64,000 nucleotides of DNA from an uncultured bacterium (GCA_964606385.1 CAZSFZ010000005.1:40650-104649), one strand, 5' to 3'; positions 28,915 to 46,882 are shown, counted from the first letter of the stretch. The notes: a model not told the origin generated them from the sequence alone. Program-made: numbers and translations.

Positions 28915-29130
28915 ATGAGTACAGCCACTAACTCAACCAGCATCTCAAGATCCAGACGTCGAACACGGGATCCCGTGAAGTTGACGGCCTTGATCTACCT
29001 GAGGGAGGCGTTGATCGCGGAGCGGTACGAGAATTGCGCCGACTTCATCGCGATCGCGAAAGAATTCGGAGCCCTGGATGCAGAGATACGCGTCTTACTC
29101 GAAGATCCTCGAAGACACCCGAGTTCGTAA
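28915..29130 (+). CDS. Hypothetical small protein (71 aa)
   Basis: Strong RBS AAAGGAGGAG 5 nt upstream of ATG 28915; MSTATNSTSISRSRRRTRDPVKLTALIYLREALIAERYENCADFIAIAKEFGALDAEIRVLLEDPRRHPSS. Confidence 0.6.
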   Translation: MSTATNSTSISRSRRRTRDPVKLTALIYLREALIAERYENCADFIAIAKEFGALDAEIRVLLEDPRRHPSS

Positions 29131-29392
29131 GCGTGAGGCGGTAGCGACCCTGGTCACCGACAGGAGGGGTGTGCCCAGTTTTTTAAATACCAATCACCAA
29201 GGGACAAGAACCAAGCGGACCACGGGAAGAATTCGGATGTGGTTTTGGAGCTCGAATGTCGCTTGGAAATTGGATCTTGGGATTTTGCCGCCGGGAGGGG
29301 TGTATTCGCAGGAAATTTTTTTTAAAAAATGCGTGAAACGATTCAAGATTTCATCATTTTGTCCGTTAAATATAGCAACAAAGGGGGACACA

Positions 29393-31636: not shown

Positions 31637-34600
31637 ATGTTTAAAAAAAGTGGCCAAACCCATCGAAGAGGATCAAGAGCCATTGCTCTTGGCGTGGCGT
31701 TTGTGTTCACTCTGACCAGCATCACCTGGTCCACGCCGACTCTGGCTGCACCTTCGGATGTCTCCCTTGCCCCTGCCATGCCGATTGAGAAACTTTCCAT
31801 TCCAGCTGAGATGGGCTCTATAAGTAAAACTTATCGTGGATCGGGAGACGTGGCCCCGCACGACCGCATGGTCGTGCTCATCCAGGACGCGCATGCGGTG
31901 GTGGACGCCCAGGAAAACATCTCGAAGATCCTGGGGCATCTCGGTAAGGCCTACGGCATACGTCTCACAGCGCTTGAAGGCGCCAAGGGCCGGCTCGAAC
32001 CCATTCTCTTCAGGGCGTTCCCGGATCCGATCGTGAAACGAAATATTCTTGCCGGTTACGAGAACCGGGCTGAGCTTTCGGGGCCGGAGATGGCTTCAGT
32101 ATTCCAGGAAGAAGCTGCTGATTTCCGGGGGATGGAAGATTGGGCCCTGTATGAGCAGAACTATTTCGCGTATCTCCGGGGCCAGGAGAAAAAAGAAGCC
32201 CTTCTTAAAAAATGGAGCGGCTTCAAGGAAAAGCGCGACAAGGAACGCGCCAAGGTCTATGACGAAAAACTCAACGAATTCCAGGAAGCCCGGGAAAATT
32301 TTCTCGCGGAAAGATCTTCATTGCTTGACCTCTTGGTGTATCTGTCGAACTTTAAGCCGCTTTTTAGTTCCGGGGACTACAAGGAGCTTCCGGGTCTGAT
32401 CGATTCGATGGGATATGAAAAGGCCGGGAAATCCGAGGCTCTTGTCCCGATGGTGCGGAAGATCGCGGATGAATTCAAGGTGAAATACCTTCGCAGCCTT
32501 GGCGTCAAGACCGAGATGAATTTTTATAACCGCTATCAGGCTTTCATGACCGGACAGATCACGGCAGGCCAGATGCTTCAGTATCTCGTTCAGGTGGGCC
32601 GCGAACACGGGAAGAACATCAAGCTGACGCCGGCCCTCAAGAAACTGCTCGGACACGCGGAGCTCCTTTCCGAGATCCGCGGGAGCACCCTCTATGAAGA
32701 ATTGCAGCGCTTTCTGCCGGTGGTGGAGGCCAGTCTTCTCAAGACCCCGGAACAGAGAAAAATGGCGGATGTTTACGGGAAGCTTTTTCTCCTCCGGGAA
32801 CTGATCGAACTTGAGCTCACGCACGAAGCTTTGGAGAAATACCAAAAAGAACCCGACGCCTACCTGGACCTTTTGGGAGACCCGCAATTCAGGAAAGACC
32901 TTGTTCCCGCGTTGGAATTTTACCGTGCAGCGTTAGAGCGCGATCAGGCATTTCTTGCCAAGATCAACGCGATGATGGCGGATTCGAAACAAAACAACGC
33001 GGCGGTGGTCGCGGGCGGTTTTCATACGAACGGGATCGAACGTCTTCTGAAAAATAAGGGGATCTCCTACGCGGTCGTGACCCCGAAGATCGCCTCGCTG
33101 GCCGGTATCGAGAATTACGCCAAGGTCATGAAGGGGGACATTTCTTTCAAGGACGATCTCAAGACCACTTATTTCGACGCGCTGATGCGGCATGCGTCCA
33201 AAGCATTGATCGAGGCATTACCGATCCCGGACCGTGTCAGGACTTTAAAGACCTGGCGGGACAATCTGATCCGCGAACTCGCCAAGCAGGGCCGCATTAC
33301 GGAGGCGGGAAAATACCTGCCGTATATCGACGGGATCCTCCAAACCATGCCGGAAATGGTCAGCGCTGTGGGACCCGTGCGAACGAAGGAAGAAACGCTT
33401 GACCTTATCCGCAAAGAACTCGAGCGGTTCAAAAAAGATTCCCTGGAGCGGATCTGGAAGACCTTTGAGTTTCAACTGGGTGTCTTCACCGACGGTCTCA
33501 AGCAGCTGATCGCGAAGAAAGATCTGAATGAGAGCTCCGTTTCATTACTGCTTAATCGTGCCAGTCAGACCAAGCCGCAATTCGTGAGCTGGGTGCAGTG
33601 TCTTGATGGGGAGATAGGAGTGCTTGGCCAATCTGTTCCCATGGTTCCGGACACCTCCAATATTTTCGCGACCCGGCCGCAGATTCTCGATGAGCTCGGC
33701 CGTATTGCGCAGGGAACCCCGCTAGGGATCGCAGGTCCCGCCATAGCTGCGACAGCAGCACAGTTATCCAAAATCGGAATGGCAACAGAAGAGGCTGTCC
33801 GGAGCGGAGAGATCGGAACCCCGGAGCCTTCAGTAACCGGTCCGGCAGTGGAGGGGATCGTGGATCAATTGGCCGCGGGGGCGGACAAGCGTGTCGTGGC
33901 CGCGCAGCTCGCAAACGAGATGAACTCGCAACTGCCCGGGCGTATCGCTCCCACGTCCGATCTTCGCTCGGAGGCCCGGTCTGAATTACGGGCGGAATTG
34001 GAAAAGAGGCTTGGTGCGATGCGCTCCTTTGGGCGGAATGAAAGATTTGCCGGAGCCACGGTTAGGATTTATCTGGAGAAGAAGGGGGAATTCTACGAAT
34101 GGGTCGTGAAGGCGAGTGATGCGAATATTTTTCATTTTGTGATGCGCGAGAACCTTGCCGGAGAATTGGTGGGCTATTACCAGCGTTTTGAAGTGGACAG
34201 ACAAAGTAGGTCTGAGACGGCCCAAGGTGACATTCATACCGTAGGGGAATCCAAGGCCTTCGGGAACCACCATTTTTTTGCCGGGAAGCGCGATCAGAGT
34301 ATGGATCCGCTTCATTTCTCGGTTCGTCCGGGCAAGGACGCGAAGGGAGCTTTCGTCAATATCGAGGTCGAAAGCAAGGAAAAAGGCGTCGAAGTCCGGT
34401 GGGATGGATCGATGGAAAAGGTTCCGGAGAAGGTTCTCGAAGCCAAAAAGGAAGAAGTGCCGCATGATGACACCCCGACGGCTGAAACGGTTGAAACTCT
34501 AGAACCCGAAGAGAGCGTGACCAACCGGGAAGCCTTTGGCCCTGAGCAGTACACGCTTGCCGGCATAACACGGTCGCCCCGGACCATTTCGGTGGATGTC

Positions 34601-37600
34601 CCGGCGTTCCGCTTCAGGAACGGCCGGATCGAGCAGAACCCGGATTACCACAATCCGGCGCTTGAAGGCGATGAGTCTTTTTCCGAGATCGTGAGAGCGC
34701 TTGAAAAAGAGCTCAGCGGTTTGTCGCAGCAAGATCAAGCGGTTCTGACGCAGGCAGCCAACGGATGGATCTTGGGAGATGACGCGGTTTCGGATTGGAT
34801 CACTCACGCGGTTCATCTTTTGAACGAGCGGGATTATACGAAGCGGGATCTGGGACTGCGGGATTTTATAAGGCAATATTTGAAAGATTCCCTGCGTTAT
34901 CTGCGTGCCTCCGGGCAGGAACAGGCGCGGTTTGCGGAAGAACTTGCCAAACATTACAGGTATTTTTCCCGAACGCAGCTCCTTCGGGAAAAACCGCAGA
35001 GCAAATTTTCGGTTCTTCATGGCAGCGATCTGAGCCGATTGCGCATTGCCCCTGAAGGGGATTCGAGATCGTTGAGCCCCCATGTGATGACGATCGAGCC
35101 CATCGTCTACCAGTTCAACAAAGGCAGACGTTTCCGGGGGGAGGAGATACCGCCCGAGAAGTTGGTGTTCGCCAAGTGGAAGGGAAGGACCTTTCTTTTT
35201 TATACTTCGCGGACGCATGCCGTTGCGGGAGTGACCCAGCACACATGGAGGCACGCGGAAGCTTATTTTGGATTAAGGGGCGGTTGGCTCGTAAAACATA
35301 TGGGCGAAAGTTATCCGGAGAACATGGATGATCTTCCTCCGCAAATAGGGCAATTGCTGGATGAGATCATTTACTCGCCTGACGTTCGTACGCTTCAGAG
35401 TTCTGAGGCCTTCGTGAAACGCGCGGATGAACTGGGCCTGCTCAATTTTACGGATTGGAACGAACTCGCGACTATTTTTGAGGCAAGGTCGGCGGATGAT
35501 CTCAAACGGACCATGGGGAAGGTGCGGGGTGCGGGACTTGTTGACAAATTATCGGGCATGAAAGTAAACCCTCAGATTTTGCAAGCTCGGGATTACATGC
35601 TTGAACAGTTCAACAATCCTGATGCGGACGATGAATCTCCCACGCAGAATTTTGAAGAACCGGAAACCGAGACCTGGGATACTCCCACCCGCTCCGAGGT
35701 CCGGGATGCTCTTTCGTCTGAACAAAACATTGCCGGCAGTGTTGAGCGTATCGGTCAAGCCCTGTTAAAGGTGGCCCCGAAAAACCTTGCGGGGGTTGAT
35801 ATTGCGGAAGCTGCCGTGGCGGTTCAAGCGTTCCGGTCCGATATGGGCGGGAATGTCAAAGTGGTTTTTCAACCTGACCGTACTGCTGAAAATCCTCGCC
35901 CCAAGAAGGTGATGCTGAGTGACGGCGAAGGGGAGATTATTTTACTTCGCAGCCAGGATCTTCTCGACATGATCGACCTACGGTATGTGGGTCGGGAAAT
36001 GAATATCAAGGAAAACATAAGAGAAGAGGATATCCCCGCTTTCAAGCGTCCCGAAGTAGCGGAGATCCACCAGGAACTCAAGCTCTTCCTTTCCACGCTA
36101 ACGAGGAACCGGTTCCTTGAAATGGTGAGAAATATTTCAGGAGATAGCTCCCTGCAATGGGAGGATCTGGGCGGGGACGTTTCCTTGGATGCGTACATGG
36201 CGGGTTCGAATAAGCATGTTTTTAAGGTGACGTTGACGAGATCAGCCGGAGATGCCCTGAGCTTTGCGGTCGCCACCAAAATAGGCCGCACAGACGCTTC
36301 GATCGCTCAAACCGAAATCAACGAGATGGAAGTGCTGAATGACAGGCCCGAGCAGGTGACGCCGCGATTTGGAGGGGCGCGGCATACAAAAGGCCGCCGC
36401 TGGTATGTTGAGGAGTTCATTGAAGGAAAGACCGTAAGGGACTTGGAGAAGGAAAATCGGGTCACGGAGGATGTGCGTCGTGGTGTGATCTCGGCCCTGC
36501 TGTCGGTTTCGATGGGGCTTAAAGGCAAAATGCCGCGCGATATGCACAGCAATAATTTTGTCGTCCGCCAAAGCGATGGGCGCGTCATTATGGTGGATAT
36601 CGGCGTAAACCGGTTCAATGTGCTCGACCAAATTGATAATGCGATCCAGAAGGAAACGCAGGCGCATCACCGGATCGCCAGTCTTGCTGTGATCCTGGCG
36701 CAGTATGGATATGTGGAGGGTTCTCCGGAGCAGAATGATTTTATTTTCGACACTCTCATGAACGATGAGGACCTCCCGCCCGGAGAGGGAAAAAGATGGG
36801 TCGAAGGCGTTTATCAGAATTTGGCAGGCAGGGACGTCTCCGAAATTGCGGACTTTTTGCATAACCGGAAATGGCTGAATCACTTCCGCAGTATTTTTGA
36901 ATCCCGAGGGTATGGCGAGTATCCCACCGAAGAACAATCGAAAAGCGCATTGCGGTCTGTAGCTTCCATGCTGCAAACAAGCATTACCCGGTACGCGGAA
37001 GAGCGAGGAATGAAATCAGGCCAGCCCTCTGTTTCTTTGATTCCTTCCGTCGGGGAACGCTCAACCCGCTCTGAGGTCCGAACGGGATCCGACGGAGCAG
37101 ACGCGTCCATCCCGGGGAATGTCCGGACCCAGGCGCTGGCGGAGATCGGTGGGGTGATGATAAGCGCCCGTTCTTTGGCGGATATGGTTCCGTTTGTCCA
37201 GGATGCGATCCGGGTTGCTGTAGCCGGGAACAACTACCAAGGTTTGGAAGAATTTTCAGAGATCTTGACAGTTATGGTTCCTGCTTTAGACGGGCAGGAT
37301 CATGTTTTTATCGTGGCTCCGCGATTTCCGACAAAAGAAAACAAAGTCGGAACATTTCATCAGGAACTTGTCGAAAAGGCCGGATTGGGATCCAGAAAAA
37401 AGGAAATGATCCGGGCCTCCCTTGATTTTGCCCCAATGGGAGTCCTCGAGGAGATTTATCTTATTCCGAGTATTTCAGGATTGCGTGTGGGCGATGACGG
37501 AACGGTCGATGCTTCCTCTAAACTGCCCGAGCTGAAACAGTTCGGATCATTTCTTTTCGATGTTTTTTCCGGGATGGGATACACGCCGCAGGATCTGGAT

Positions 37601-40600
37601 AAGATCAAGTTGACTCTGGATAGTTCTGTACAGGACGCCTTGGGCGGGCGTGAGATCCGTTTGTCTCAGCTAGCGGAGGTGAGTGCCGAAGACGCTTCTC
37701 GTTCCGAATTGCGGCTGCGGGACATGTACGGCTATTTGATGAATAAAGTGCTGATGCCCGCGGTGCTGGCTGTGTGGCTGGCGTTGCCTTCGTTCGCGAC
37801 AGCTCAGCCTAACCAACCTTACAGCGCGCGTTTCGATCCTGCAATGGGCATGGAAGCCGGCGCTGAAAATCTTTACTCCGGTTATCGGGCGCTGAATGAA
37901 TTTGCGATCGATCCTGTGACCGGGAGCATTCCTTACCTTGAGAATAACCCGTTGGGCAGGTTCGTGAAATTGTTTGCTGTGGACCGTATAAGCGCTGACT
38001 TTTTCTGGGTGGCCCAGCATGAATTTTTCGGTCACGGGGCGCAGTCGCGCGAGGTCGGGGATTATGGATCTTCGTATCGTATGAATTTTGAGACACCGAG
38101 GCTGGAGTATTTCAACGGCTATAGGATCTTCGGTTGGTGGTCGGGGGCTGCGTCGCGAGGCGACCGGGAATATTCGACGGACGAATCTCTCGAAACTATT
38201 GCCGGCGGCATGGAAAGCACACAGGTCATGTCAGACTGGATCCGCTGGAACATGTTCCGTTACGGCGCAACGGCACAGGACGCGGTTCTTTATTATGTCT
38301 CAAAACTCGATCTGACGGATTACATTGAGACGACGCCCAGCCCGGCTTCTCGCGCGGGATTGATCGTGAAGGGTGGCGGTAACAGCGATGTGGATGCCTA
38401 TGGTGAAGAGATGACCGCGAAGTACGGGGAGGATGCGGATCTTTGGAGCGATATGGAGCGGGCCGCGCTTTGGAATGCGCTGGATCCCACGATTTGGATC
38501 TCGGCTTTCCGCCAGCTGGATTATGTAGCGCGGGGAACCCGGGAATTCCGGTTGCCCCGGATCCTGCCCTATACTGGAGCCAATCTGACGCCGCTGGGCC
38601 CCGAATATTATTTGGGAGCTCATTTTACGGCTGCGGAGCTTTACTATGACGTATATGGTAGAAAAGGCGTTGGGCCTGCGGGCGAATTTTATGGGGCGGG
38701 TCTTCGTGTTGGAGATATTGATCTGGGGAACGGCTACTCACTTGGGATGAACCTCGATGCGTGGGACCAGGAACGATTCGGCTTTGCGGTGAGGACAACT
38801 GTAAGCAAAAGTTTGAGTGATCGATTCAGGATCAGCGCTGGCGCCGATTATAAAACAGAAGGTTATCTGAAAGGGCGTCAAAGCGATGAGGGAGTCTCTG
38901 GCTTTATCAGTGTTCAAGGGGCTTTGTCGCGTCCGGAGGTTCGCTCGACCTCTGGCCGCTCGGAATTGCGCGAAGGAGAGGTAAGCGTCAAGGCTGGATT
39001 ATTTGATGCCGTGATCCAATTGAATGAAGCGGTTAAATATCTCATTATGCCCGCTAGCATGCTGGCGGGATTCTATTTGTGGAAAAGCTCGCTGCTCTTG
39101 CTCGCCAAAGCCTCCCTATTGCCTGAAGGAACGCTCATGATCGTGGCCAGTTTCACCACAGCATTTCTCGGTGTTGTATTAGGTGCTAATGCGATGCTTC
39201 GACTGCTGTTTAATCCGGAGAGGACCACGATCTATCGGGGCATTCATGGGAGCGCGGATACCATTCTTGATGTTCTCAGACGCGGTGACATTGTTGAAGC
39301 GCCCAAACCAAGTGACGAGATCGCCTGGAGCGAAGTGATAGGGCATTTTGGAGGCAAACCCAGCTCCTCTCTCAAATCCATGACGCCACAAAAACGATGG
39401 GCTGAATATTACACGCTATTTTCCGCTTACGGGCAGAAGGATGTTTCGCGGGGCGAAAGATTTCTTAATGCGTTCAAAGAAATCTTTGCCAGAAAATTCA
39501 TGAAAGATCAGCGTATTAAGATCGTCACGACCCCCGAGGAGGGCGCGCAACTGCTTTCGGAGTTGCAGGAGCAGGGCGGAATTAACGGAGAAATAGGCTT
39601 GCTTGAAACGGTGCCGGGCGTGCCCAACGCGCAAAGCCGTATGCTTTACTGGAATCCGTTCGGTGGACATATCGAAATTGCGCTTGCTTACGGTGTGACG
39701 CCGAAAGAGATCTCGACGGTGGAGATCTTTATCCCGCGCGAAGGTAACGAGCATCTCGGTTTAGAAGCCTTATCCGAAAGAGCGGCTGGGAGTGTTCGTT
39801 CCGAGTTGCGGGGAATGATTTCACGCATGACGCTGGGATTAACGATGGCGGCGATCCTGTCGTTCTCGGCGCTTTCGGCGGAAGGTGCGCAGAAGCGTGA
39901 CGCGAAGACGAGTCAGATACAGACGGAACTTGTTTCGATGGGATATTTGCAAGACAGCGATGTCCAAGGGAACTATGGGTTCTACGGACCTAAAACGAAA
40001 GCGGCGGTTACGCGGCTTCAGACCGATCTAAAAAAGACTGGCCATTATAAGGGGCCGATCGATGGCGACTATGGCCCCGGGACTGATCGGGCGCTCAGAG
40101 CTTGGCAGCAAGCTCAGGGAACCGCTCCGGCCGTGCCGGAGGCGGCTGTGCCTGTCGAAGGGGATCAGGATGTTATCGATGCTCTTGAAGATCTCAGGGG
40201 CCTTCGGCGTGATGCTCCCGAACATATATTTAATCTGCTGTTAGACAGCGGTCAAAGGCGTCTTTCATTTGACGCGAAATCAGAGCTTGTTTCACAAATG
40301 AGTTTTCAAGAGGTCTTGGAAAAAGTTTCGGTTCGCTCCGGGCTTGCGGCATCTGAATTTGAAAGGATCGCGCAGAAATATGATGTCCCGGTTGAATCCC
40401 TGATCGCCCGCGGCTTTAAAGAGAATCCCAAATTTGATCCGTTGGTCAGCGGGCCGGACGGAAGGGATATCGGATTATTCCAGGTAAGGATCGACACGGT
40501 TCGGGACGGGAGGTTTTTCCCGCTGCTCAAGGATCTTGCCGTTCAGGAGGGGTTGCTCAAAGGGGCCGAAGCGAAAGCAAGTTCGCGTTCGATCACGGAT

Positions 40601-43600
40601 GCCAAGCTGAAACAGATCCTCAAAGATTCTTCCATCAATGCGGAAATGAGTATCATGATCCACAAGACTTATTCTCAAGAAGTGGCAAGGCTGAAAACTG
40701 TTACCGTCACGGGAGCCGCCGGGATCGGAAGCCAAGCCCTTGAAGTTTATTTGTCGGGGGATTATTTAGAAAAAGGGCAGGCTGCTTATAACATCGGGGT
40801 CGGGAATTTCCAGAAGATCGTGAATACCGTTTCGGTCTCGGGGATTTCGGGATTGCCGGCCTCACTGGCAAAAGTCGCCCGGCGCGGGCAGGCTTACGCA
40901 GCGGAAATAGAGGGATTCCAGGAAGTTCTGGAGGCTACCAACAATGTCCCTTCGACCGGCCAAGATCTTTTAGCCATGAATACCCGTGGCCGCTCCGAGG
41001 TGAGGACTGTGGATCAAAGTGAAATTGCAGAACGTGTCGCGGCGAAGCATCCGTCGTCCAGCCGGTTTTCGAAAGAACCGATCTTGGGTTTTGAGATCAT
41101 GAGCGTGGATTGGAAAAATATTCCCAAGGCGATTCGGGACCGGCTTGGGAAAGTGGATCAAACCTACAAGGAGGGAGTCGAAAAAGTTCTCGCGGCGAAT
41201 ATCGGGGGATTCATTGCGCTTCAGATGAAAGGGGACCAGCCGGATTTTTATATCGTTAGCCCCCGGGTGGCGCAGGGGAAATACCAGAAAACCGTGATCG
41301 GTTATGAGGGGTATGACAAACTGGTCCGGGCGATGAAAGCGGGTGTGGTCGAGATGATCCGCATGTCGGATCTCGGCTATTCAAAAGACGAATCCGTTTC
41401 CATTCAAGTGGATTGGGGGAGCGGTCCCGAGAAGCAGACGAAGCCCGCGGGTCAGGATGCCTATCTCGCCCATGACGGGAAACAGTGGTACATGCTGAAT
41501 GTCAACGTCGAGGGGCTTCCCATCAGTTATGTTCCCGTTTCAGCGTCCGGATCTGCGGCGAATCGTGTCGATCTGATGATCAAAGGACTGATCGATGTGA
41601 TCGCGCGCCGGCAGAATTTGTCCGATGAAGACCGGAAAAAAGTTGAGATGATTGCGGAACTTGCCAAAACGGCGCATTCGGGCCAGAAACGGAAGAACGG
41701 GGATCCGTATTTCCGGCATCCGCTCGAAATGGCGTGGTACATGATGACGCGATTCGGTAATTATTCGCCGGTTGAGTTTCAAGTCAATCTTCTGCATGAC
41801 ACTCGCGAGGACCAGGCCGAATTTTATGAAGCGATCAAAGCGATCCTGGATGATATGTTCGCGCAGTTGGAAAAACTGGGAGATTCCGCCCAAACCGAAC
41901 AGGATCGCAGGAATTACAACTTGATCCGACTTGGCGTGAGGCTTTTAACGAAGATCGTGCCTGAGGAGGTCCGGGGCGCGGATGGGACTGTCAAATGGCA
42001 AATTACCCACAAGGATGTGAACGGAAAGGATGTTACGAGGACTTTTGATAGCGAGGCCGATGCCGATGCGGCCGGACAGATCCAATACTACACGCAAATG
42101 TTGAATCCGCACCGCTATTTCAGAAAAGAGATCATTGCCGCGGGGATTTCCGAGGATGAGGCCGCGCGGATCCGCGGTCGGTACGCGGATTATGACGATG
42201 CCTTTATTCGCGGGATCCAGCAAGCCAAATTAAGTGACAGGATCGTTAACACACGGGACCTGATGAACCTTTTCAACCCGCAAGTCGAGCAGACCGATTC
42301 GATCCGGAAATTTCCCGCGCGGATGATCGGTAAAACGCTGGATTGGATGATCCCGAATCTGGTTGAAGCGGAAAATGCCGGGCAAGGGCTGCATCCCGAT
42401 GATCGCCGGATGTTCTATGAGGGATTTGTGGGGATCCTTGTGGATTACGCCAATCTTGATACGGGATTAAATCCCATGGTCAAGCCGCTGAAAGACGCCG
42501 CCCTCGCGACGCTCCGGGATCCCCGCTTGCAAGTCGGTATTGAGATCGCGGGAATGCGCCGGGAGGTCGACGAGGCGATACAACATCGTTCCGAAGTCCG
42601 TGCGGGAGAGGTTCAGCCGCTCCGGCTGAACGAGCAAAAAGAGAATGAGTTTTATGAGAGGTGGGGAGAGTCATTAAAGAAGAGCGGCCATCGTTCACCT
42701 CAAGCCCTTATCAATATTGCGCAACATATCCGCGAAAGCCGGCAGGTCGTAAGCTATGCGGATTTTCTTGGGCAAATGAAGGGGATGCAGCCGAAGCTGG
42801 CAGCGGCCTTGGGGACCACGGGATCTTATGCGGTTGTTTGGGATGAGCCGGCGGAAGGCGAGGCGGATCACATGAAATTGCACAAATCCCGCCGCTGGGC
42901 GTGGTCGCTTATCCGTGATGGCTTGCGCGCGCCGTCAGCCGAGATCTATGGGAACGAGCTCGGTAAGGCTCGCGGCGTCTCAACATTTGTGATCGCGGAT
43001 GACGCGAGTTATAGCGGAACTCAGATCCGGGAAACGATTGAAAGGATCTCAAAGGCGAATCCGAGGGCTCAAATCACTATAGCTGTTCCCTACATGACAA
43101 GCCGGGCCGAACGCGTGATACGGTCCCGGAGAGGGCTTCCGGAGGGCGTTTCCATTAGAGTTCTGGAACATGAGACCATGCCGACGCTTTCTGAGATTCT
43201 CACGAAGTCCGAACGCGACCTTTTTGCCGATAACCGTACTGCATTCGGGACGGTGACGATCGATGGGAAATCCTACGATGTGCTGCTGACGGCCGTGACG
43301 CTCTTCGATCATAAGGTCGCTGATTCTTGGTCGGTTTATCAGCGTCTCGCACAATTCTATGATCCAGTGACGCCGCCCTACAAGAATGAGCGGAGCGCGT
43401 ATTATCAGGAAGAATCAGGAACGCTTGCTGCCGAAGAAGTTCCGGTGCGGGCGGAGGTGCTAGAGCCTGAATTTTATAAAACAGAGACAAAGTTCCAGCT
43501 TGTGGATTCGAGCGCGCGACCGGGGGAACCGGAAGCCCAAAAGGTTCCCACGCTGCGAGCGTTTGAAGTGTTTAATCTGGATCTGACCACAGAGGAACAG

Positions 43601-46600
43601 CGGAATGTTGTAGAACGGATCCAGAACGGACAAGCCCCGAATGTGATGCTCTTGACCCGTGAGGCGTTGCTTAGCAAAGGAGCGTTCACGGCGGATACAA
43701 AAGCGGGAATTTTCCCTGCGGAGCTGAGGGGAACGGAGTTGGCATTGGGGGATAACGGAAAAGCTTTGTTCCAGACCTTGTATGTGAATCTTTTGGATCC
43801 GAGGCTGCAGGGTGAAGGAAATATCCGTGTCAGCGTCGCCGGTTTGTTCCGAATTAGAGTTGACCGGGCCGATATCACGGGATTTTCAGAACCTCTTTAC
43901 CTGGTGATTCTCAATAAAAATCGTCGGACTCCCGAAGGCCTTTTGACCGTTGGAGCGATCGGCGGAGCTTATCAAACCCAAGGTGTGGCGGCGCCGCAGG
44001 ATATACGCGGACTTATAGAAAAACCGGATTCCGAAGCTTTCCTGCAATGGTTCGTGACGGGACAGGGGCGGGAAACCAACCCTTTGAGAGAATTTGAAGA
44101 AGAGGTCCTTGGCGCAGCCGGCGACCAGGTAAATCTTTTTGACGAGCTTCCCACAGCCCTTCGTAATTTCAAGACCCGTTCGGAAGCACGGGAGCAAATG
44201 GTAGACATGGATGTAGGTAAAACATACGCGATGACGCTTGGCTCGAATGGCGTATGGGAAAAGAAAGAAGTCGGGGCGGATGTATGGCCCAAGAATGCGG
44301 AAGATATCAAGCCGGGCCGTATGGGGATGATCGATCTGACCGCGGCAGGTCATCGGCCGATCGGTTTTGAACTGAATTTTTGCAGCGCGTTGGTTCTTTT
44401 TACCCCGACCGCAGTCTATTATGCCCATTCGTTTTTTGAGAATCTGAATAATCTGCACGATACCAACCGGTTGATCCGAAATCAGTTTTACGGCCGCGAA
44501 CAGCAAGTCACCGCGATGTTAGGATGGGGGACGGATTATCAGCGGATGCCGGCTGAGAAACAGGAGAAGCTTGTGTCGCAGCAAAAGGCCTTTGGCGACA
44601 TTCTGTCCGAAGGATTTAATACATTATCCCTGGAGCCCGGTGAAAATATCATCCTAAAAGTCGCTTTTGATCCCAAAACACAGACGCTCTATGCGCGGCA
44701 GGAAAAACCGGTGGGCCGTTCTGAAGCGAGAGAAGAGGATGCAACCTCGAGCGTTCTCCGGGTCAAAGGGGACAAAATACCGATCCTGGTGCGTGATTTT
44801 ATCGGAACGCAGATCAAATCGGGCACGAGTGCCCTTGAGATGGGCATCGGGTCGGGGGCCTTGACACGCGATCTCGCCGAAGGGGCCTCCCGATTGAAGG
44901 ACGTTCAATTCGTTGGCGTGGATATCAATCCGGAAGCGGTGCAGATGTCCCGGTCGCTGCTCGGCAAATACAGGAATGTGCGCGTCTTGGAAAGTGATCT
45001 CTTCTCAGCCTTCACAAAGGGAGAAAAATTCGATGTGATTTTCTGGAATCCTCCCTGGTCCTCCCAGGGCGAGGCCGGCACGCTGGCGCTCGCAAAATCC
45101 GATCCCGGCTTCGAGACTCTTAGCCGCTTCTTTAAAGAAGCACCCATGTTTTTGAAGCCTGGGGGAAAAGTGTTCCTGATCATGCCTGTCGAGGCCATGG
45201 AGGAGATCTGGGAGGATGCCTCCGCGAAGTTCGAGATCGATAGAAAAGGCTGGGAGAAAACCAAGAATTCCAACATTGGAATTTTTGAGTTGAAACCTAG
45301 GGCGCTTGAGCAAGTTCAGGCGTCGGATGCCGTGATTTCATCGGATTCCGATTGGCGGGAGGTTTTTCAGGACAATAGTCGTCCGTTATTTGTGGAAGTT
45401 GGCGTGGGAGACGGCAAGAAAAGCATGTTGGTCGCTGAAAGCCGTCCGGACGCGAATTTCATCTTGATTGAACCGGAGGCAAGCGCTTTCCAAAAATTGC
45501 AGCAGACGGTTCGTGATTCGGGATTAACTAATATCCGGATCGTACGGGGTCAGGACGGCGACCTGTTTGATCTTCAAAAGGGAAGCGGCTTTATCGACCT
45601 GATCTATTGCGTGGCGCCGTTCGTGAACACGCCGTGGCCTTATTTCTTTTCCGAAGGTCCGAAGGCGCCCACATACCAGCGTGCATTGAGCTTATTGAAA
45701 AGCCGCGGGGAGATACTGGTCATGCCCGATGAAACGCTTGCTGGCGAGTGGTACGACCATTTTGAAGGGCAATACCCGAATGCCGAGATCGTGCCGCAAA
45801 GCCGTGTTTTCCCGGGATTGAATGCCGCCCTGGAACGCTATCATCAACAAGTGCTCGATTTTAAATATAGCGACCCTATTGTGATCACACGGCGCTCAGA
45901 GAATCGCGCAGTTTCAGGTTTTTGGTCTTCTGTGGAGTCGAAAGATATTGTCGCGGAAGCTCGGGACAAGGGGCCGGACGCGGCACGTGCGATGTTTGAA
46001 CGATCAGGCCGCACGGAATTGGGAAAGATTGGTGATGCTTACGATGCGGGAAGTACGGATTTGATGTCGGTTTTGAGAGATGCGCCGTCAATGTCCGCGG
46101 CGCTTCCCGAGGCAGTCGCGCAGCTATCCGGCCGTATGGGGAATGATGCCAATTTGTTCAACTGGCCCGCCCTGCAAGCCGGCCTTGAGAATATCCTGAT
46201 GCCGACGGCGATGGCGCTCGAAACCGTGAACGCGGATGTGGCGAATATTGTTCCCGCCCAGATGAAGCTTCTCATCGATACGTTGGCAAATATCAAAGGA
46301 TCGCTCACGATCGGTCTGGACCTCGGAACGGGGAAGGATGCGGAGATCGGCAGCGCGGTTTTGGAACAGCTTATCAAAGCGATCGGCGAGCGCAGCGGCA
46401 TCGTCAATGAACTTGCCGTGAGCGGTAAGCTGCCCGGGCCGGCGCGTCAAACCCTGAAATCAAGGGGTATCAATGACCGGCCGATCCGGCCGAACCAGTC
46501 CTTTATTCCGATCAATGCGCAGGATGCTGTTCCGCTGGTCATGAGTTCGAGCGCGGCGAACGGTGTGATCCATCAAGTATTCTATCCGATCGTCGGCGAT

Positions 46601-46882
46601 CGAGGAGCCGTGACCGATACGCTTGTGAACGATTACGCGAATCTCCTGGAAGTGGTGGCGGCGATCCACTGTGCGGATATCATTTCACGTCAGCCCAATT
46701 TGCTGAAGCAGCCCGAGCTTTTGAAAGCCGAACTTCTTAAGACGCTTTTCCGTCAGGAGCAGGGCGCTGTTGAGAACCTGATCCAGGTGCGCGCGGGAGG
46801 ACGCGGATTTACGGTCTCGAGCGCGGCGGTGAAGGTCTATCTCGAGATGATGGCGAAGCAGTCGGTCGAGAAGGCAGCGTAA
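31637..46882 (+). CDS. Giant secreted/membrane multidomain protein (5081 aa). N-terminal signal/TM; kinase-like (~36120-36650); internal signal-like segment (37739-37808) followed by HEFFGH metallopeptidase motif (38018-38035); TM pair (~39040-39210); second internal signal-like segment (39815-39890) followed by PG_binding_1 domain (~39900-40110) and SLT-like region; SpoT-type HD domain (~41650-41830); PRTase-like motif (~42985-43025); HemK-like methyltransferase (~44790-45290, NPPW); TrmB-like methyltransferase (~45370-45600)
   Basis: 15.2-kb stop-free frame. Motifs read: AIALGVAFVFTLTSITWSTPTLAAPS; KVTLTRSAGD...EEFIEG...PRDMHSNNFVV...MVDIG (kinase-like); AQHEFFGHG; YGFYGPKTKAAVTRLQ...DGDYGPGTDRALRAWQ; AHSGQKRKNGDPYFRHPLEMA...LLHDTRED; FVIADDASYSGTQI; LEMGIGSGALT...FDVIFWNPPW; LFVEVGVGDGKKSMLVAESRPDANFILIEPE. 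Ten RSE[VLA]R motifs mark the boundaries. Confidence 0.85.
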   Translation: MFKKSGQTHRRGSRAIALGVAFVFTLTSITWSTPTLAAPSDVSLAPAMPIEKLSIPAEMGSISKTYRGSGDVAPHDRMVVLIQDAHAVVDAQENISKILGHLGKAYGIRLTALEGAKGRLEPILFRAFPDPIVKRNILAGYENRAELSGPEMASVFQEEAADFRGMEDWALYEQNYFAYLRGQEKKEALLKKWSGFKEKRDKERAKVYDEKLNEFQEARENFLAERSSLLDLLVYLSNFKPLFSSGDYKELPGLIDSMGYEKAGKSEALVPMVRKIADEFKVKYLRSLGVKTEMNFYNRYQAFMTGQITAGQMLQYLVQVGREHGKNIKLTPALKKLLGHAELLSEIRGSTLYEELQRFLPVVEASLLKTPEQRKMADVYGKLFLLRELIELELTHEALEKYQKEPDAYLDLLGDPQFRKDLVPALEFYRAALERDQAFLAKINAMMADSKQNNAAVVAGGFHTNGIERLLKNKGISYAVVTPKIASLAGIENYAKVMKGDISFKDDLKTTYFDALMRHASKALIEALPIPDRVRTLKTWRDNLIRELAKQGRITEAGKYLPYIDGILQTMPEMVSAVGPVRTKEETLDLIRKELERFKKDSLERIWKTFEFQLGVFTDGLKQLIAKKDLNESSVSLLLNRASQTKPQFVSWVQCLDGEIGVLGQSVPMVPDTSNIFATRPQILDELGRIAQGTPLGIAGPAIAATAAQLSKIGMATEEAVRSGEIGTPEPSVTGPAVEGIVDQLAAGADKRVVAAQLANEMNSQLPGRIAPTSDLRSEARSELRAELEKRLGAMRSFGRNERFAGATVRIYLEKKGEFYEWVVKASDANIFHFVMRENLAGELVGYYQRFEVDRQSRSETAQGDIHTVGESKAFGNHHFFAGKRDQSMDPLHFSVRPGKDAKGAFVNIEVESKEKGVEVRWDGSMEKVPEKVLEAKKEEVPHDDTPTAETVETLEPEESVTNREAFGPEQYTLAGITRSPRTISVDVPAFRFRNGRIEQNPDYHNPALEGDESFSEIVRALEKELSGLSQQDQAVLTQAANGWILGDDAVSDWITHAVHLLNERDYTKRDLGLRDFIRQYLKDSLRYLRASGQEQARFAEELAKHYRYFSRTQLLREKPQSKFSVLHGSDLSRLRIAPEGDSRSLSPHVMTIEPIVYQFNKGRRFRGEEIPPEKLVFAKWKGRTFLFYTSRTHAVAGVTQHTWRHAEAYFGLRGGWLVKHMGESYPENMDDLPPQIGQLLDEIIYSPDVRTLQSSEAFVKRADELGLLNFTDWNELATIFEARSADDLKRTMGKVRGAGLVDKLSGMKVNPQILQARDYMLEQFNNPDADDESPTQNFEEPETETWDTPTRSEVRDALSSEQNIAGSVERIGQALLKVAPKNLAGVDIAEAAVAVQAFRSDMGGNVKVVFQPDRTAENPRPKKVMLSDGEGEIILLRSQDLLDMIDLRYVGREMNIKENIREEDIPAFKRPEVAEIHQELKLFLSTLTRNRFLEMVRNISGDSSLQWEDLGGDVSLDAYMAGSNKHVFKVTLTRSAGDALSFAVATKIGRTDASIAQTEINEMEVLNDRPEQVTPRFGGARHTKGRRWYVEEFIEGKTVRDLEKENRVTEDVRRGVISALLSVSMGLKGKMPRDMHSNNFVVRQSDGRVIMVDIGVNRFNVLDQIDNAIQKETQAHHRIASLAVILAQYGYVEGSPEQNDFIFDTLMNDEDLPPGEGKRWVEGVYQNLAGRDVSEIADFLHNRKWLNHFRSIFESRGYGEYPTEEQSKSALRSVASMLQTSITRYAEERGMKSGQPSVSLIPSVGERSTRSEVRTGSDGADASIPGNVRTQALAEIGGVMISARSLADMVPFVQDAIRVAVAGNNYQGLEEFSEILTVMVPALDGQDHVFIVAPRFPTKENKVGTFHQELVEKAGLGSRKKEMIRASLDFAPMGVLEEIYLIPSISGLRVGDDGTVDASSKLPELKQFGSFLFDVFSGMGYTPQDLDKIKLTLDSSVQDALGGREIRLSQLAEVSAEDASRSELRLRDMYGYLMNKVLMPAVLAVWLALPSFATAQPNQPYSARFDPAMGMEAGAENLYSGYRALNEFAIDPVTGSIPYLENNPLGRFVKLFAVDRISADFFWVAQHEFFGHGAQSREVGDYGSSYRMNFETPRLEYFNGYRIFGWWSGAASRGDREYSTDESLETIAGGMESTQVMSDWIRWNMFRYGATAQDAVLYYVSKLDLTDYIETTPSPASRAGLIVKGGGNSDVDAYGEEMTAKYGEDADLWSDMERAALWNALDPTIWISAFRQLDYVARGTREFRLPRILPYTGANLTPLGPEYYLGAHFTAAELYYDVYGRKGVGPAGEFYGAGLRVGDIDLGNGYSLGMNLDAWDQERFGFAVRTTVSKSLSDRFRISAGADYKTEGYLKGRQSDEGVSGFISVQGALSRPEVRSTSGRSELREGEVSVKAGLFDAVIQLNEAVKYLIMPASMLAGFYLWKSSLLLLAKASLLPEGTLMIVASFTTAFLGVVLGANAMLRLLFNPERTTIYRGIHGSADTILDVLRRGDIVEAPKPSDEIAWSEVIGHFGGKPSSSLKSMTPQKRWAEYYTLFSAYGQKDVSRGERFLNAFKEIFARKFMKDQRIKIVTTPEEGAQLLSELQEQGGINGEIGLLETVPGVPNAQSRMLYWNPFGGHIEIALAYGVTPKEISTVEIFIPREGNEHLGLEALSERAAGSVRSELRGMISRMTLGLTMAAILSFSALSAEGAQKRDAKTSQIQTELVSMGYLQDSDVQGNYGFYGPKTKAAVTRLQTDLKKTGHYKGPIDGDYGPGTDRALRAWQQAQGTAPAVPEAAVPVEGDQDVIDALEDLRGLRRDAPEHIFNLLLDSGQRRLSFDAKSELVSQMSFQEVLEKVSVRSGLAASEFERIAQKYDVPVESLIARGFKENPKFDPLVSGPDGRDIGLFQVRIDTVRDGRFFPLLKDLAVQEGLLKGAEAKASSRSITDAKLKQILKDSSINAEMSIMIHKTYSQEVARLKTVTVTGAAGIGSQALEVYLSGDYLEKGQAAYNIGVGNFQKIVNTVSVSGISGLPASLAKVARRGQAYAAEIEGFQEVLEATNNVPSTGQDLLAMNTRGRSEVRTVDQSEIAERVAAKHPSSSRFSKEPILGFEIMSVDWKNIPKAIRDRLGKVDQTYKEGVEKVLAANIGGFIALQMKGDQPDFYIVSPRVAQGKYQKTVIGYEGYDKLVRAMKAGVVEMIRMSDLGYSKDESVSIQVDWGSGPEKQTKPAGQDAYLAHDGKQWYMLNVNVEGLPISYVPVSASGSAANRVDLMIKGLIDVIARRQNLSDEDRKKVEMIAELAKTAHSGQKRKNGDPYFRHPLEMAWYMMTRFGNYSPVEFQVNLLHDTREDQAEFYEAIKAILDDMFAQLEKLGDSAQTEQDRRNYNLIRLGVRLLTKIVPEEVRGADGTVKWQITHKDVNGKDVTRTFDSEADADAAGQIQYYTQMLNPHRYFRKEIIAAGISEDEAARIRGRYADYDDAFIRGIQQAKLSDRIVNTRDLMNLFNPQVEQTDSIRKFPARMIGKTLDWMIPNLVEAENAGQGLHPDDRRMFYEGFVGILVDYANLDTGLNPMVKPLKDAALATLRDPRLQVGIEIAGMRREVDEAIQHRSEVRAGEVQPLRLNEQKENEFYERWGESLKKSGHRSPQALINIAQHIRESRQVVSYADFLGQMKGMQPKLAAALGTTGSYAVVWDEPAEGEADHMKLHKSRRWAWSLIRDGLRAPSAEIYGNELGKARGVSTFVIADDASYSGTQIRETIERISKANPRAQITIAVPYMTSRAERVIRSRRGLPEGVSIRVLEHETMPTLSEILTKSERDLFADNRTAFGTVTIDGKSYDVLLTAVTLFDHKVADSWSVYQRLAQFYDPVTPPYKNERSAYYQEESGTLAAEEVPVRAEVLEPEFYKTETKFQLVDSSARPGEPEAQKVPTLRAFEVFNLDLTTEEQRNVVERIQNGQAPNVMLLTREALLSKGAFTADTKAGIFPAELRGTELALGDNGKALFQTLYVNLLDPRLQGEGNIRVSVAGLFRIRVDRADITGFSEPLYLVILNKNRRTPEGLLTVGAIGGAYQTQGVAAPQDIRGLIEKPDSEAFLQWFVTGQGRETNPLREFEEEVLGAAGDQVNLFDELPTALRNFKTRSEAREQMVDMDVGKTYAMTLGSNGVWEKKEVGADVWPKNAEDIKPGRMGMIDLTAAGHRPIGFELNFCSALVLFTPTAVYYAHSFFENLNNLHDTNRLIRNQFYGREQQVTAMLGWGTDYQRMPAEKQEKLVSQQKAFGDILSEGFNTLSLEPGENIILKVAFDPKTQTLYARQEKPVGRSEAREEDATSSVLRVKGDKIPILVRDFIGTQIKSGTSALEMGIGSGALTRDLAEGASRLKDVQFVGVDINPEAVQMSRSLLGKYRNVRVLESDLFSAFTKGEKFDVIFWNPPWSSQGEAGTLALAKSDPGFETLSRFFKEAPMFLKPGGKVFLIMPVEAMEEIWEDASAKFEIDRKGWEKTKNSNIGIFELKPRALEQVQASDAVISSDSDWREVFQDNSRPLFVEVGVGDGKKSMLVAESRPDANFILIEPEASAFQKLQQTVRDSGLTNIRIVRGQDGDLFDLQKGSGFIDLIYCVAPFVNTPWPYFFSEGPKAPTYQRALSLLKSRGEILVMPDETLAGEWYDHFEGQYPNAEIVPQSRVFPGLNAALERYHQQVLDFKYSDPIVITRRSENRAVSGFWSSVESKDIVAEARDKGPDAARAMFERSGRTELGKIGDAYDAGSTDLMSVLRDAPSMSAALPEAVAQLSGRMGNDANLFNWPALQAGLENILMPTAMALETVNADVANIVPAQMKLLIDTLANIKGSLTIGLDLGTGKDAEIGSAVLEQLIKAIGERSGIVNELAVSGKLPGPARQTLKSRGINDRPIRPNQSFIPINAQDAVPLVMSSSAANGVIHQVFYPIVGDRGAVTDTLVNDYANLLEVVAAIHCADIISRQPNLLKQPELLKAELLKTLFRQEQGAVENLIQVRAGGRGFTVSSAAVKVYLEMMAKQSVEKAA

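Follow-up and report, generated by a model that had tools for sequence, protein, structure and literature searches.

MARTX toxins of Vibrio and its relatives carry effector modules that are exchanged between strains by recombination and are released at short inter-module sites. The sites of picornavirus 3C, the dibasic sites of flavivirus NS3 and the KR sites of Kex2 and furin in pro-hormones and fungal repeat proteins are short and strict, lie in flexible linkers with unconserved flanks, and co-evolve with their proteases. In polymorphic toxins, the motifs VENN (CdiA) and PxxxxDPxGL (Rhs) mark the point at which cassettes are swapped, and the DNA that encodes them is thought to aid recombination. 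The subject of the present analysis is a pentapeptide, R-S-E-x-R (RSExR), that recurs in two giant open reading frames (ORFs) of a 64,000-nucleotide stretch of DNA from an uncultured bacterium (GCA_964606385.1 CAZSFZ010000005.1:40650-104649). This whole stretch is referred to below as the window, and positions are counted from its first letter. RSExR is a protein-level punctuation between independently folding, independently exchangeable modules, and also a putative protease recognition site. By its sequence, the window is assigned to a Candidatus Omnitrophota bacterium, and the nearest relatives of its giant ORFs carry this label wherever a source is named.

Giant proteins have already been described in this phylum. 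The Archaeovorins exceed 30,000 amino acids (aa), with a gene of more than 90 kb (West-Roberts et al. 2023, bioRxiv 10.1101/2023.11.21.568195), and the long 'multi-enzyme' Omnitrophota proteins described elsewhere have 10,000 aa or more (Nielsen and Lui 2026, bioRxiv 10.64898/2026.06.07.730766). Whether Omnitrophota giants act as single chains or in pieces is an open question; cleavage has been suspected, and the lack of known cleavage points has blocked the splitting of these giants for structure prediction (West-Roberts et al. 2023). Archaeovorin domains include methyltransferases, NUDIX hydrolases, glycosyl transferases and hydrolases, peptidases, an N-terminal C39 or S8 domain and a SecA DEAD domain (West-Roberts et al. 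2023). From this set, methyltransferases and NUDIX domains are found in the giant ORFs of the window, which also hold HD, PG_binding, DUF218 and HEAT domains, while Pfam scans of both ORFs returned no glycosyl transferase or hydrolase, C39, S8 or SecA domain. In a broad sense, the two ORFs count among the giant or long multi-enzyme proteins of Omnitrophota. Neither of the two papers mentions a boundary motif or a leader module like that of the second ORF, which is described below. In a literature search, pentapeptides in such a context were absent among the top-ranked matches and no paper joined Omnitrophota with 'polyprotein'; within the searchable literature, the RSExR boundary motif appears to be unreported.

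RSExR marks cassette boundaries

Both giant ORFs, and all the motif copies within them, lie on the + strand. ORF 1 (20-17764, 5914 aa) carries eight RSExR copies, all of them from aa 2241 onwards, and ORF 2 (31637-46882, 5081 aa) carries twelve, plus one RPEVR. When the fourth residue is restricted to V, L or A, the counts are six and eleven, against a mean of 0.03 and a maximum of 1 in residue shuffles of each protein (2000 per protein); with any fourth residue (RSE.R), the expectation is ~0.1 for the eight and twelve copies observed. A six-frame scan of the whole window finds RSE.R in no other genuine gene, and in an unbiased k-mer survey it is the top gapped 5-mer by far, no other repeat having been found in the giants. 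The tripeptide RSE is part of a motif copy in eight of its nine occurrences in ORF 1 and in 12 of 13 in ORF 2, one-off variants are nearly absent from both ORFs, and no residue is conserved at the positions flanking the motif. The first-pass annotation of the window, made from the sequence alone, gave coordinates that are confirmed in both ORFs, including the six canonical copies of ORF 1 and its variants RSETR (6740) and RSEMR (10769). For ORF 2 it counted 10 copies while listing 11 RSE[VLA]R sites, all 11 of which are real, and it missed the RSENR at 45893. The enrichment that it left to be checked is found in the window ORFs and in 80 related loci, with the motif far above compositional expectation.

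Comparison of ORF 2 with its relatives reveals what the motif separates. ORF 2 and its syntenic orthologue (P0002, from locus L002 of a related genome, with the same gene neighbourhood) share collinear blocks at 77-92% identity, whose ends in the protein fall 0-19 aa from a motif. Between these blocks, ORF 2 aa 1816-2021 (37082-37699) is absent from the orthologue, which has an insertion of ~330 aa after the leader and unrelated modules in place of ORF 2 aa 2446-3111 and 3675-4350. At the DNA level, one block extends from 37700, the first base of an RSELR (37700-37714, aa 2022), to the final base, at 38970, of the RSELR that follows (38957-38971, aa 2441), downstream of which the modules are replaced by unrelated ones in the orthologue; the RPEVR variant (38930-38944, aa 2432) precedes this second RSELR by nine residues. 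Most of the remaining DNA block ends lie within ~20 nucleotides (nt) of motif codons. Homology with the orthologue resumes at the RSEVR of 40991-41005 (aa 3119), ends at the DNA level inside the RSEVR of 42587-42601 (aa 3651) and resumes again at the RSEAR of 44717-44731 (aa 4361), and the RSENR of 45893-45907 (aa 4753) aligns to RAETR. A partial Omnitrophota protein, P0001, is 73% identical to ORF 2 only from the RSEVR at aa 1352 (35690-35704), where the similarity starts exactly, to an RSE[VA]R at aa 1811 (RSEVR in ORF 2, 37067-37081), where similarity to both P0001 and P0002 stops. The modules that flank this block in P0001 are unrelated to the neighbours of the block in ORF 2. The other copies of ORF 2 are an overlapping RSEA-RSELR directly after the leader region (33965-33991, aa 777-785; RSEAR at 33965 and RSELR at 33977), an RSELR at 39797-39811 (aa 2721) and an RSEAR at 44177-44191 (aa 4181).

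ORF 1 provides the corresponding picture for duplication and reordering. It holds two paralogous modules (11396-14365), each running from RSExR to RSExR, that align motif to motif at 32% identity (E 2e-64; 11396-12865, aa 3793-4282, and 12893-14365, aa 4292-4782). The first extends from the RSELR of 11396-11410 (aa 3793) to that of 12851-12865 (aa 4278), which is also the first half of a double motif; the other half, the RSEVR of 12893-12907 (aa 4292), opens the second module, and the RSEVR of 14351-14365 (aa 4778) closes it and opens a NUDIX module. Similarity to the protein P0165 starts exactly at the RSELR of aa 3793, and the double motif 4278/4292 is kept there. The duplication surfaced only through P0165 and direct pairwise alignment; BLAST searches of ORF 1 against ORF 2, and of each against itself, gave no match at E<=1. 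In P0167, a module of the paralogous type and a DUF218 module, which in ORF 1 starts at the RSEMR of 10769-10783 (aa 3584), stand in the opposite order to that of ORF 1. The remaining copies of this ORF are RSETR at 6740-6754 (aa 2241), RSELR at 7556-7570 (aa 2513) and RSELR at 17027-17041 (aa 5670).

The association between block ends and motifs was quantified over all loci, using the blocks with 60% identity or more beyond the leader, which have 68 distinct ends, and shuffled motif positions as the null. The distance to a motif is 3 aa or less for 31% of these ends (null 1.7%, maximum 7.4%), 10 aa or less for 53% (null 4.9%) and 25 aa or less for 72% (null 11%). In junction-spanning alignments beyond aa 1000, the partner has RSExR within 12 aa opposite 14 of the 22 copies, and R[STPAQ]ExR opposite 18 of them; at the first junction after the leader, where the position is less fixed, 21 of 76 face RSExR and 27 of 76 the looser pattern. 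RSExR is thus the mark of cassette boundaries, and modules have been deleted, replaced, duplicated and reordered precisely between motifs.

Wherever a segment delimited in this manner has a Pfam match, it holds one discrete domain or a pair of them, and none of the domains has a motif in its interior. The matches of ORF 1 are HEAT, DUF218 and NUDIX. In ORF 2, the RSELR of 39797 is followed by a signal-peptide-like segment and a PG_binding_1 module, the RSEVR of 40991 opens a module with a weak HD_4 match, that of 42587 a module with a PRTase-CE (weak) and a Sa_NUDIX domain, and the RSEAR of 44717 a double methyltransferase module; His_Phos_1, APH and HATPase_c domains are found in other giants. 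The segment of ORF 2 from aa 1352 to aa 1815, opened and closed by the RSEVR copies of 35690 and 37067, is predicted to adopt a protein-kinase-like fold, of a kind common among the modules of these giants. The block between the RSELR copies of 37700 and 38957 (37700-38971, + strand) is a secreted-protein module with full-length homology to stand-alone proteins of ~390-470 aa (P0017, P0018, P0031 and others). Among the stand-alone homologues inspected, P0018 and P0031 begin with signal peptides, and ORF 2 retains the corresponding hydrophobic, signal-peptide-like segment right after the RSELR. The linkers around the motifs are rich in Ala, Ser and Pro upstream and in Glu downstream. An AlphaFold model of one junction region (aa 1280-1900) gives the kinase-fold domain a predicted local distance difference test score (pLDDT) of 81-96 and places both motifs in segments of pLDDT ~30, some 10 residues before the first helix and 20 after the last. 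The first-pass annotation had described the motifs as sitting between modules and as ending both copies of the duplicated module of ORF 1, and had suggested looking for positional agreement at junctions across homologues and for disordered linkers. The first description is supported by the breaks in homology with orthologues and paralogues; positional agreement is found at module boundaries; and in the junction region modelled, both motifs fall in low-confidence linkers beside a well-folded domain.

The motif extends well beyond the window. Word-indexed searches for homologues returned one to four relatives each, and an exhaustive HMMER search with ORF 2 aa 1301-2500 returned many large proteins, in which RSE.R is again the top gapped 5-mer, as in P0002 (5705 aa, 11 copies), P0045 (7691 aa, 13), P0151 (6471 aa, 14) and P0102 (3231 aa, 5). 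A scan for the leader in one genome per GTDB species yielded 80 loci (L005-L084), from dozens of species and often several per genome, and where a record names an organism, this is Omnitrophota in nearly every case. The leader-bearing ORFs of these loci contain 285 RSE.R copies in 210,226 aa, against 5.5 expected by composition. Flanking ORFs of 150-1499 aa contain 15 in 282,046 aa, mostly in fragments of adjacent giant genes, and eight additional flanking giant ORFs contain 36 more. The fourth residue is V in 56 cases, L in 55, M in 47, A in 37, S in 31, T in 25 and I in 12. The first copy is found at a median position of aa 777, just past the leader, and consecutive copies lie at protein-sized intervals, with a median of 359 aa (interquartile range 234-533).

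Individual genomes and loci show marked preferences. In genome JAUYMS, all 17 copies in three different giant ORFs are RSELR, written with several Leu codons, all nine copies in two loci of genome CAYRBY are RSELR as well, and all nine in locus L081 are RSESR. Lineage variants include RTEMR (seven copies in L045, partly in recent 21-aa tandem repeats), RTELR (L035), RxEMR (L068), RAEKR (L019) and RPExR (several loci). More distant giants share the leader and the kinase module but have no RSExR-like motif, and no alternative punctuation motif emerged from a search of the distant leader-bearing giants without RSExR.

Some junctions carry two to four copies spaced by 4-22 aa, as in L036 (aa 704-744) and in L045 (aa 1834-2371), the latter made of exact 21-aa tandem repeats (SLDRTEMRPVTDV...), and in the window at 33965-33991 and 12851-12907; these could be redundant sites or recombination scars. 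A lone RSEWR at aa 404 of the L037 ORF, inside the leader, aligns to LELSxEDW in all other leaders and is a chance copy, which shows that an RSExR can also occur without marking a boundary. Leader-type giant genes are often directly preceded by another RSExR-rich giant ORF with 6-13 copies (L009 1-9252, L053 3-9671, L082 2-9679 on the - strand, L083 1-8745), which extends beyond the fetched locus, and this suggests that giant genes are arranged as tandem arrays.

The leader module and protease candidates

The leader module of ORF 2 (31637-33583, + strand, aa 1-649) consists of a basic N-terminus, a hydrophobic signal or anchor segment at aa ~14-32 and a predicted alpha/beta domain. It forms the N-terminal part of giant ORFs in the 80 loci, with up to five paralogues per genome, heads giants with and without RSExR, and is a previously unannotated family. 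Four residues are invariant in 54 leaders: H86 (in QDAH), E114 (in LEGA), R435 and H463 (in GGFHT). They fit the description of the TIKI/TraB/PrgY/EreA/ChaN proteins, namely two His-containing motifs plus a conserved Glu and a conserved Arg, and may correspond to the catalytic residues of the family. A structure model of the leader, built from five sequences (pLDDT 63), suggests a fold like that of the TIKI/TraB/EreA/ChaN superfamily, and the MARTX effector RRSP is among its structural neighbours. The members of this superfamily include proteases (TIKI, RRSP), esterases and haem binders.

Profile searches gave no family match of the leader to the TIKI/TraB superfamily above the Pfam threshold. 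TraB_PrgY_gumN, with a cut-off of 26.8 bits, was hit only below threshold, in seven of 54 leaders and with an E value of 0.003 at best, and Cofac_haem_bdg, also below threshold, in two of 54; sequence and profile searches of the PDB with the leader returned only coiled-coil noise such as syntaxin. The leader may be considered a weak protease candidate. Pfam scans of both giant ORFs detected neither a C80 domain nor any other protease family, and the HExxH motif is absent from both.

A secreted S1/HtrA-like serine protease of ~250 aa, with a GDSG sequence and an Asp located six positions ahead of the catalytic Ser, is encoded immediately upstream of a leader-type giant in L004 (7987-8754) and L045 (7824-8576), two loci whose neighbourhoods otherwise differ. 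L045 is also the locus of the RTEMR variant. Neither the window nor any of the other 82 loci has this protease.

Possible readings of the motif

Motif copies within a single gene differ by synonymous changes and have no flanking DNA in common, and between orthologues the four fixed residues are invariant despite their diverging flanks. These residues are maintained by selection on amino acids. Moreover, the preferences for particular fourth residues and variants are concerted genome-wide, and these comparisons point to a shared reader of the peptide, acting at the protein level. It is proposed, with roughly equal chances of being right or wrong, that the giants are polyproteins in which RSExR (broadly R-[S>T,P,A]-E-x-R) is the site recognised by a protease. 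A shared endopeptidase would cut the giant polyproteins at RSExR into module-sized products, and the proposed cut lies after the last Arg, with Arg at P5, a small residue at P4, Glu at P3, an aliphatic or small residue at P2 and Arg at P1. One candidate for the cutting enzyme is the TIKI/TraB-like leader of ORF-2-type giants, which would process its own chain in cis and ORF 1 in trans; the other is a separate protease with specificity for Arg. A protease site is favoured because the site is short, strict and embedded in unconserved linkers, because the units are complete proteins that tolerate any neighbour, because the specificity drifts in concert within genomes, and because position 2 takes S, T, P or A, as would be expected from a subsite preference and not from a phospho-acceptor.

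Several observations weigh against cleavage, or at least against the leader as its agent. The leader heads giants with no RSExR-like motif (e.g., P0007, P0010 and P0041) and ORF 1 has the motif without the leader, so the two are not strictly coupled, and both facts count against a simple cis model. The fold assignment of the leader comes from a moderate model, and the superfamily is not restricted to proteases, as it also holds esterases and haem binders. No neighbouring gene that could encode a protease or a secretion partner is conserved in more than 11 of the 80 loci, and no protease with RSExR specificity was identified among the known ones. Furthermore, there are boundaries without a motif, many loci having several hundred variable residues between the leader and the first copy, and the double or triple copies found at some junctions are not needed for cleavage alone.

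The evidence for a shared reader would equally suit an uncleaved linear motif in the linkers, serving as a docking or modification site for a common partner, for instance through Ser/Thr phosphorylation by the kinase-fold modules or through recognition by a factor that exports or assembles the modules one by one. Position 2 is Ser, or Thr in some lineages (the seven RTEMR of L045, the RTELR of L035), which fits a phospho-acceptor, protein-kinase-fold modules are common in these giants, and the tandem copies at some junctions would also be compatible with this function. However, position 2 is elsewhere Pro, Ala, Gln or Lys (RPExR, RAEKR, RQEMR), which cannot be phosphorylated, and an uncleaved motif leaves unexplained both the complete N-terminal signal peptides of the modules and their free swapping regardless of neighbours; this explanation is regarded as unlikely. 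It is harder still to believe that RSExR is a passive structural element of the linker, such as a charged R/E/R capping or salt-bridge unit, that has no specific reader. The linkers around the motif are indeed polar and of low predicted order, but a passive element should tolerate Lys for Arg and Asp for Glu, and such one-off variants are nearly absent in the window ORFs; related giants with the same leader and modules manage without the motif, and concerted preferences at position 4 across a genome are not expected of a spacer.

A third alternative, given a similarly small chance, places the signal in the DNA: CGY TCY GAR NNN CGN would be a nucleotide joint for recombination and the peptide a by-product of gene assembly. 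DNA homology between orthologues breaks 0-20 nt from the motif codons, the overlapping RSEA-RSELR of 33965-33991 resembles a junction scar, and codon usage in the motif is skewed. Across the 285 copies, the first Arg is CGY in 79% and the Ser is TCN in 93%, compared with 42% and 62% in RS dipeptides outside the motif, and in the window ORFs the first Arg is CGN and the Ser TCN in 20 of 20 copies, with third positions varying freely. The same skew is nevertheless present in the leader, whose conserved Arg columns have CGY in 77% and conserved Ser columns TCN in 94%, so it is not a DNA-level signal, and a nucleotide-level constraint was rejected on these grounds; the skew is consistent with codon selection at constrained sites. 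In addition, the third positions and the whole fourth codon vary, the genome-specific fourth residue is kept with different codons, the invariance of the residues while their flanks diverge needs selection on the peptide, and ~10 fixed nucleotides are too few for a site-specific recombinase. As side observations on codon usage, conserved Arg/Ser positions in the L005-L084 genes show CGY in 77-79%, against a gene average of ~40%, and the last Arg of the motif has no CGY bias (CGG 38%, AGR 28%).

The first-pass annotation had held that the motif is conserved as a peptide and not as a DNA repeat, which agrees with the different codons of the copies and with the codon control. Its broader claim of a conserved inter-module signal is sustained by the homology breaks at the motif, the enrichment in the 80 loci, the codon control and the modelled linkers. 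It had also left three options for the function of this signal: cleavage sites of a polyprotein, docking or modification sites, or the signature of the mechanism that assembled the genes. Polyprotein cleavage is the best supported of them, as a candidate function, and the assembly signature stands in the form of exchange at the motif but not as a sequence-specific DNA mechanism. A common short sequence at every module end would provide in-frame microhomology that aids exact cassette exchange, and this would explain why the exchange joins fall exactly on the motif. Microhomology at RSExR probably helps exact in-frame exchanges as a secondary consequence.

Extended to the whole group, the cleavage reading leads to a more tentative picture, in which doubt somewhat outweighs confidence, of an Omnitrophota clade that would make whole batteries of enzymes and effectors from 'protein operons', polyproteins encoded on the chromosome, 3,000 to more than 7,000 aa long, with R-S-E-x-R at the end of each unit. 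A dedicated endopeptidase would read the motif and co-evolve with it genome by genome (giving Leu-only, Ser-only and Thr variants), and the pentapeptide would also act as the in-frame joint for the gain, loss and shuffling of cassettes. If this is true, cells would possess a polyprotein system that spans the genome and follows one universal cleavage code, a kind of system familiar until now chiefly from viruses; cleavage, if confirmed, would be an unusual strategy of gene expression for cellular organisms with reduced genomes. RSExR supplies the first concrete candidate cut points for Omnitrophota giant proteins, as well as a rule by which their giant ORFs, unannotated for the most part, can be divided into ~360-aa units to be modelled and annotated. 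The way in which the fourth residue co-varies between genomes could lead to the protease responsible, and the exchange of cassettes exactly at the motif bears on the evolution of giant genes.

Genomic context and relation to known systems

The window is a segment of a bacterial chromosome, with the two giant ORFs on the + strand and housekeeping genes between and after them. The latter encode NAD synthase, ArgRS, MiaA, HflX, a transaldolase-phosphoglucose isomerase (PGI) fusion, an amidase, SNF and CitMHS transporters, PFOR and an ADP-forming acetyl-CoA synthetase. ORF 1, which is devoid of a TIKI-like leader, has several transmembrane-like segments (aa 2027-2100 and 2914-3530). The fused transaldolase-phosphoglucose isomerase gene (24683-27556, 957 aa) is kept in L002 (982 aa). 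A 71-aa ORF with a good Shine-Dalgarno sequence is found at 28916-29131 (MSTATNSTSISRSRRRTRDPVKLTALIYLREALIAERYENCADF...), and its 3' 127 nt (29005-29131) are 99% identical to L002 at the DNA level, the neighbouring genes being 78-90% identical. This ORF gives no RNA-structure signal (z -0.19) and no Rfam match, and no tRNA or Rfam family was found in the window.

Within the same phylum, the Archaeovorins and the long multi-enzyme proteins are similar to the window ORFs: all are multi-enzyme ORFs associated with the membrane, they share domains of the methyltransferase, NUDIX and kinase types, and large parts of their sequence are unannotated. Unlike the Archaeovorins, the window ORFs have 5914 and 5081 aa, far below 30,000 aa.

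With MARTX toxins, the RSExR giants share a very large size and arrays of unrelated effector or enzyme modules, although cleavage in the RSExR giants is a prediction. No C80 cysteine protease and no RTX/MARTX repeats appear in the Pfam scans of either giant ORF. An internal cysteine protease cuts MARTX toxins in loose linkers that contain Leu, whereas RSExR is a strict pentapeptide with four fixed residues. In viral polyproteins and Kex2/furin-type precursors, one ORF likewise encodes many functional units separated by a short strict site; in contrast to them, the RSExR giants are encoded on a cellular bacterial chromosome, with several such genes per genome. To our knowledge, R-S-E-x-R matches no known protease specificity, the nearest in form being the factor Xa site I-E/D-G-R. 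A short peptide that marks the point of cassette swapping is also a feature of the demarcation motifs of polymorphic toxins and of the polyvalent proteins of phages and conjugative elements. However, polymorphic toxins have a single demarcation before one C-terminal toxin, whereas RSExR giants have 8-14 copies per protein and modules that are mostly enzymes and not recognisable toxins. By analogy, the functionally closest systems would be the MARTX toxins, viral polyproteins and Kex2/furin-type precursors, with the motifs of polymorphic toxins as a comparable case.

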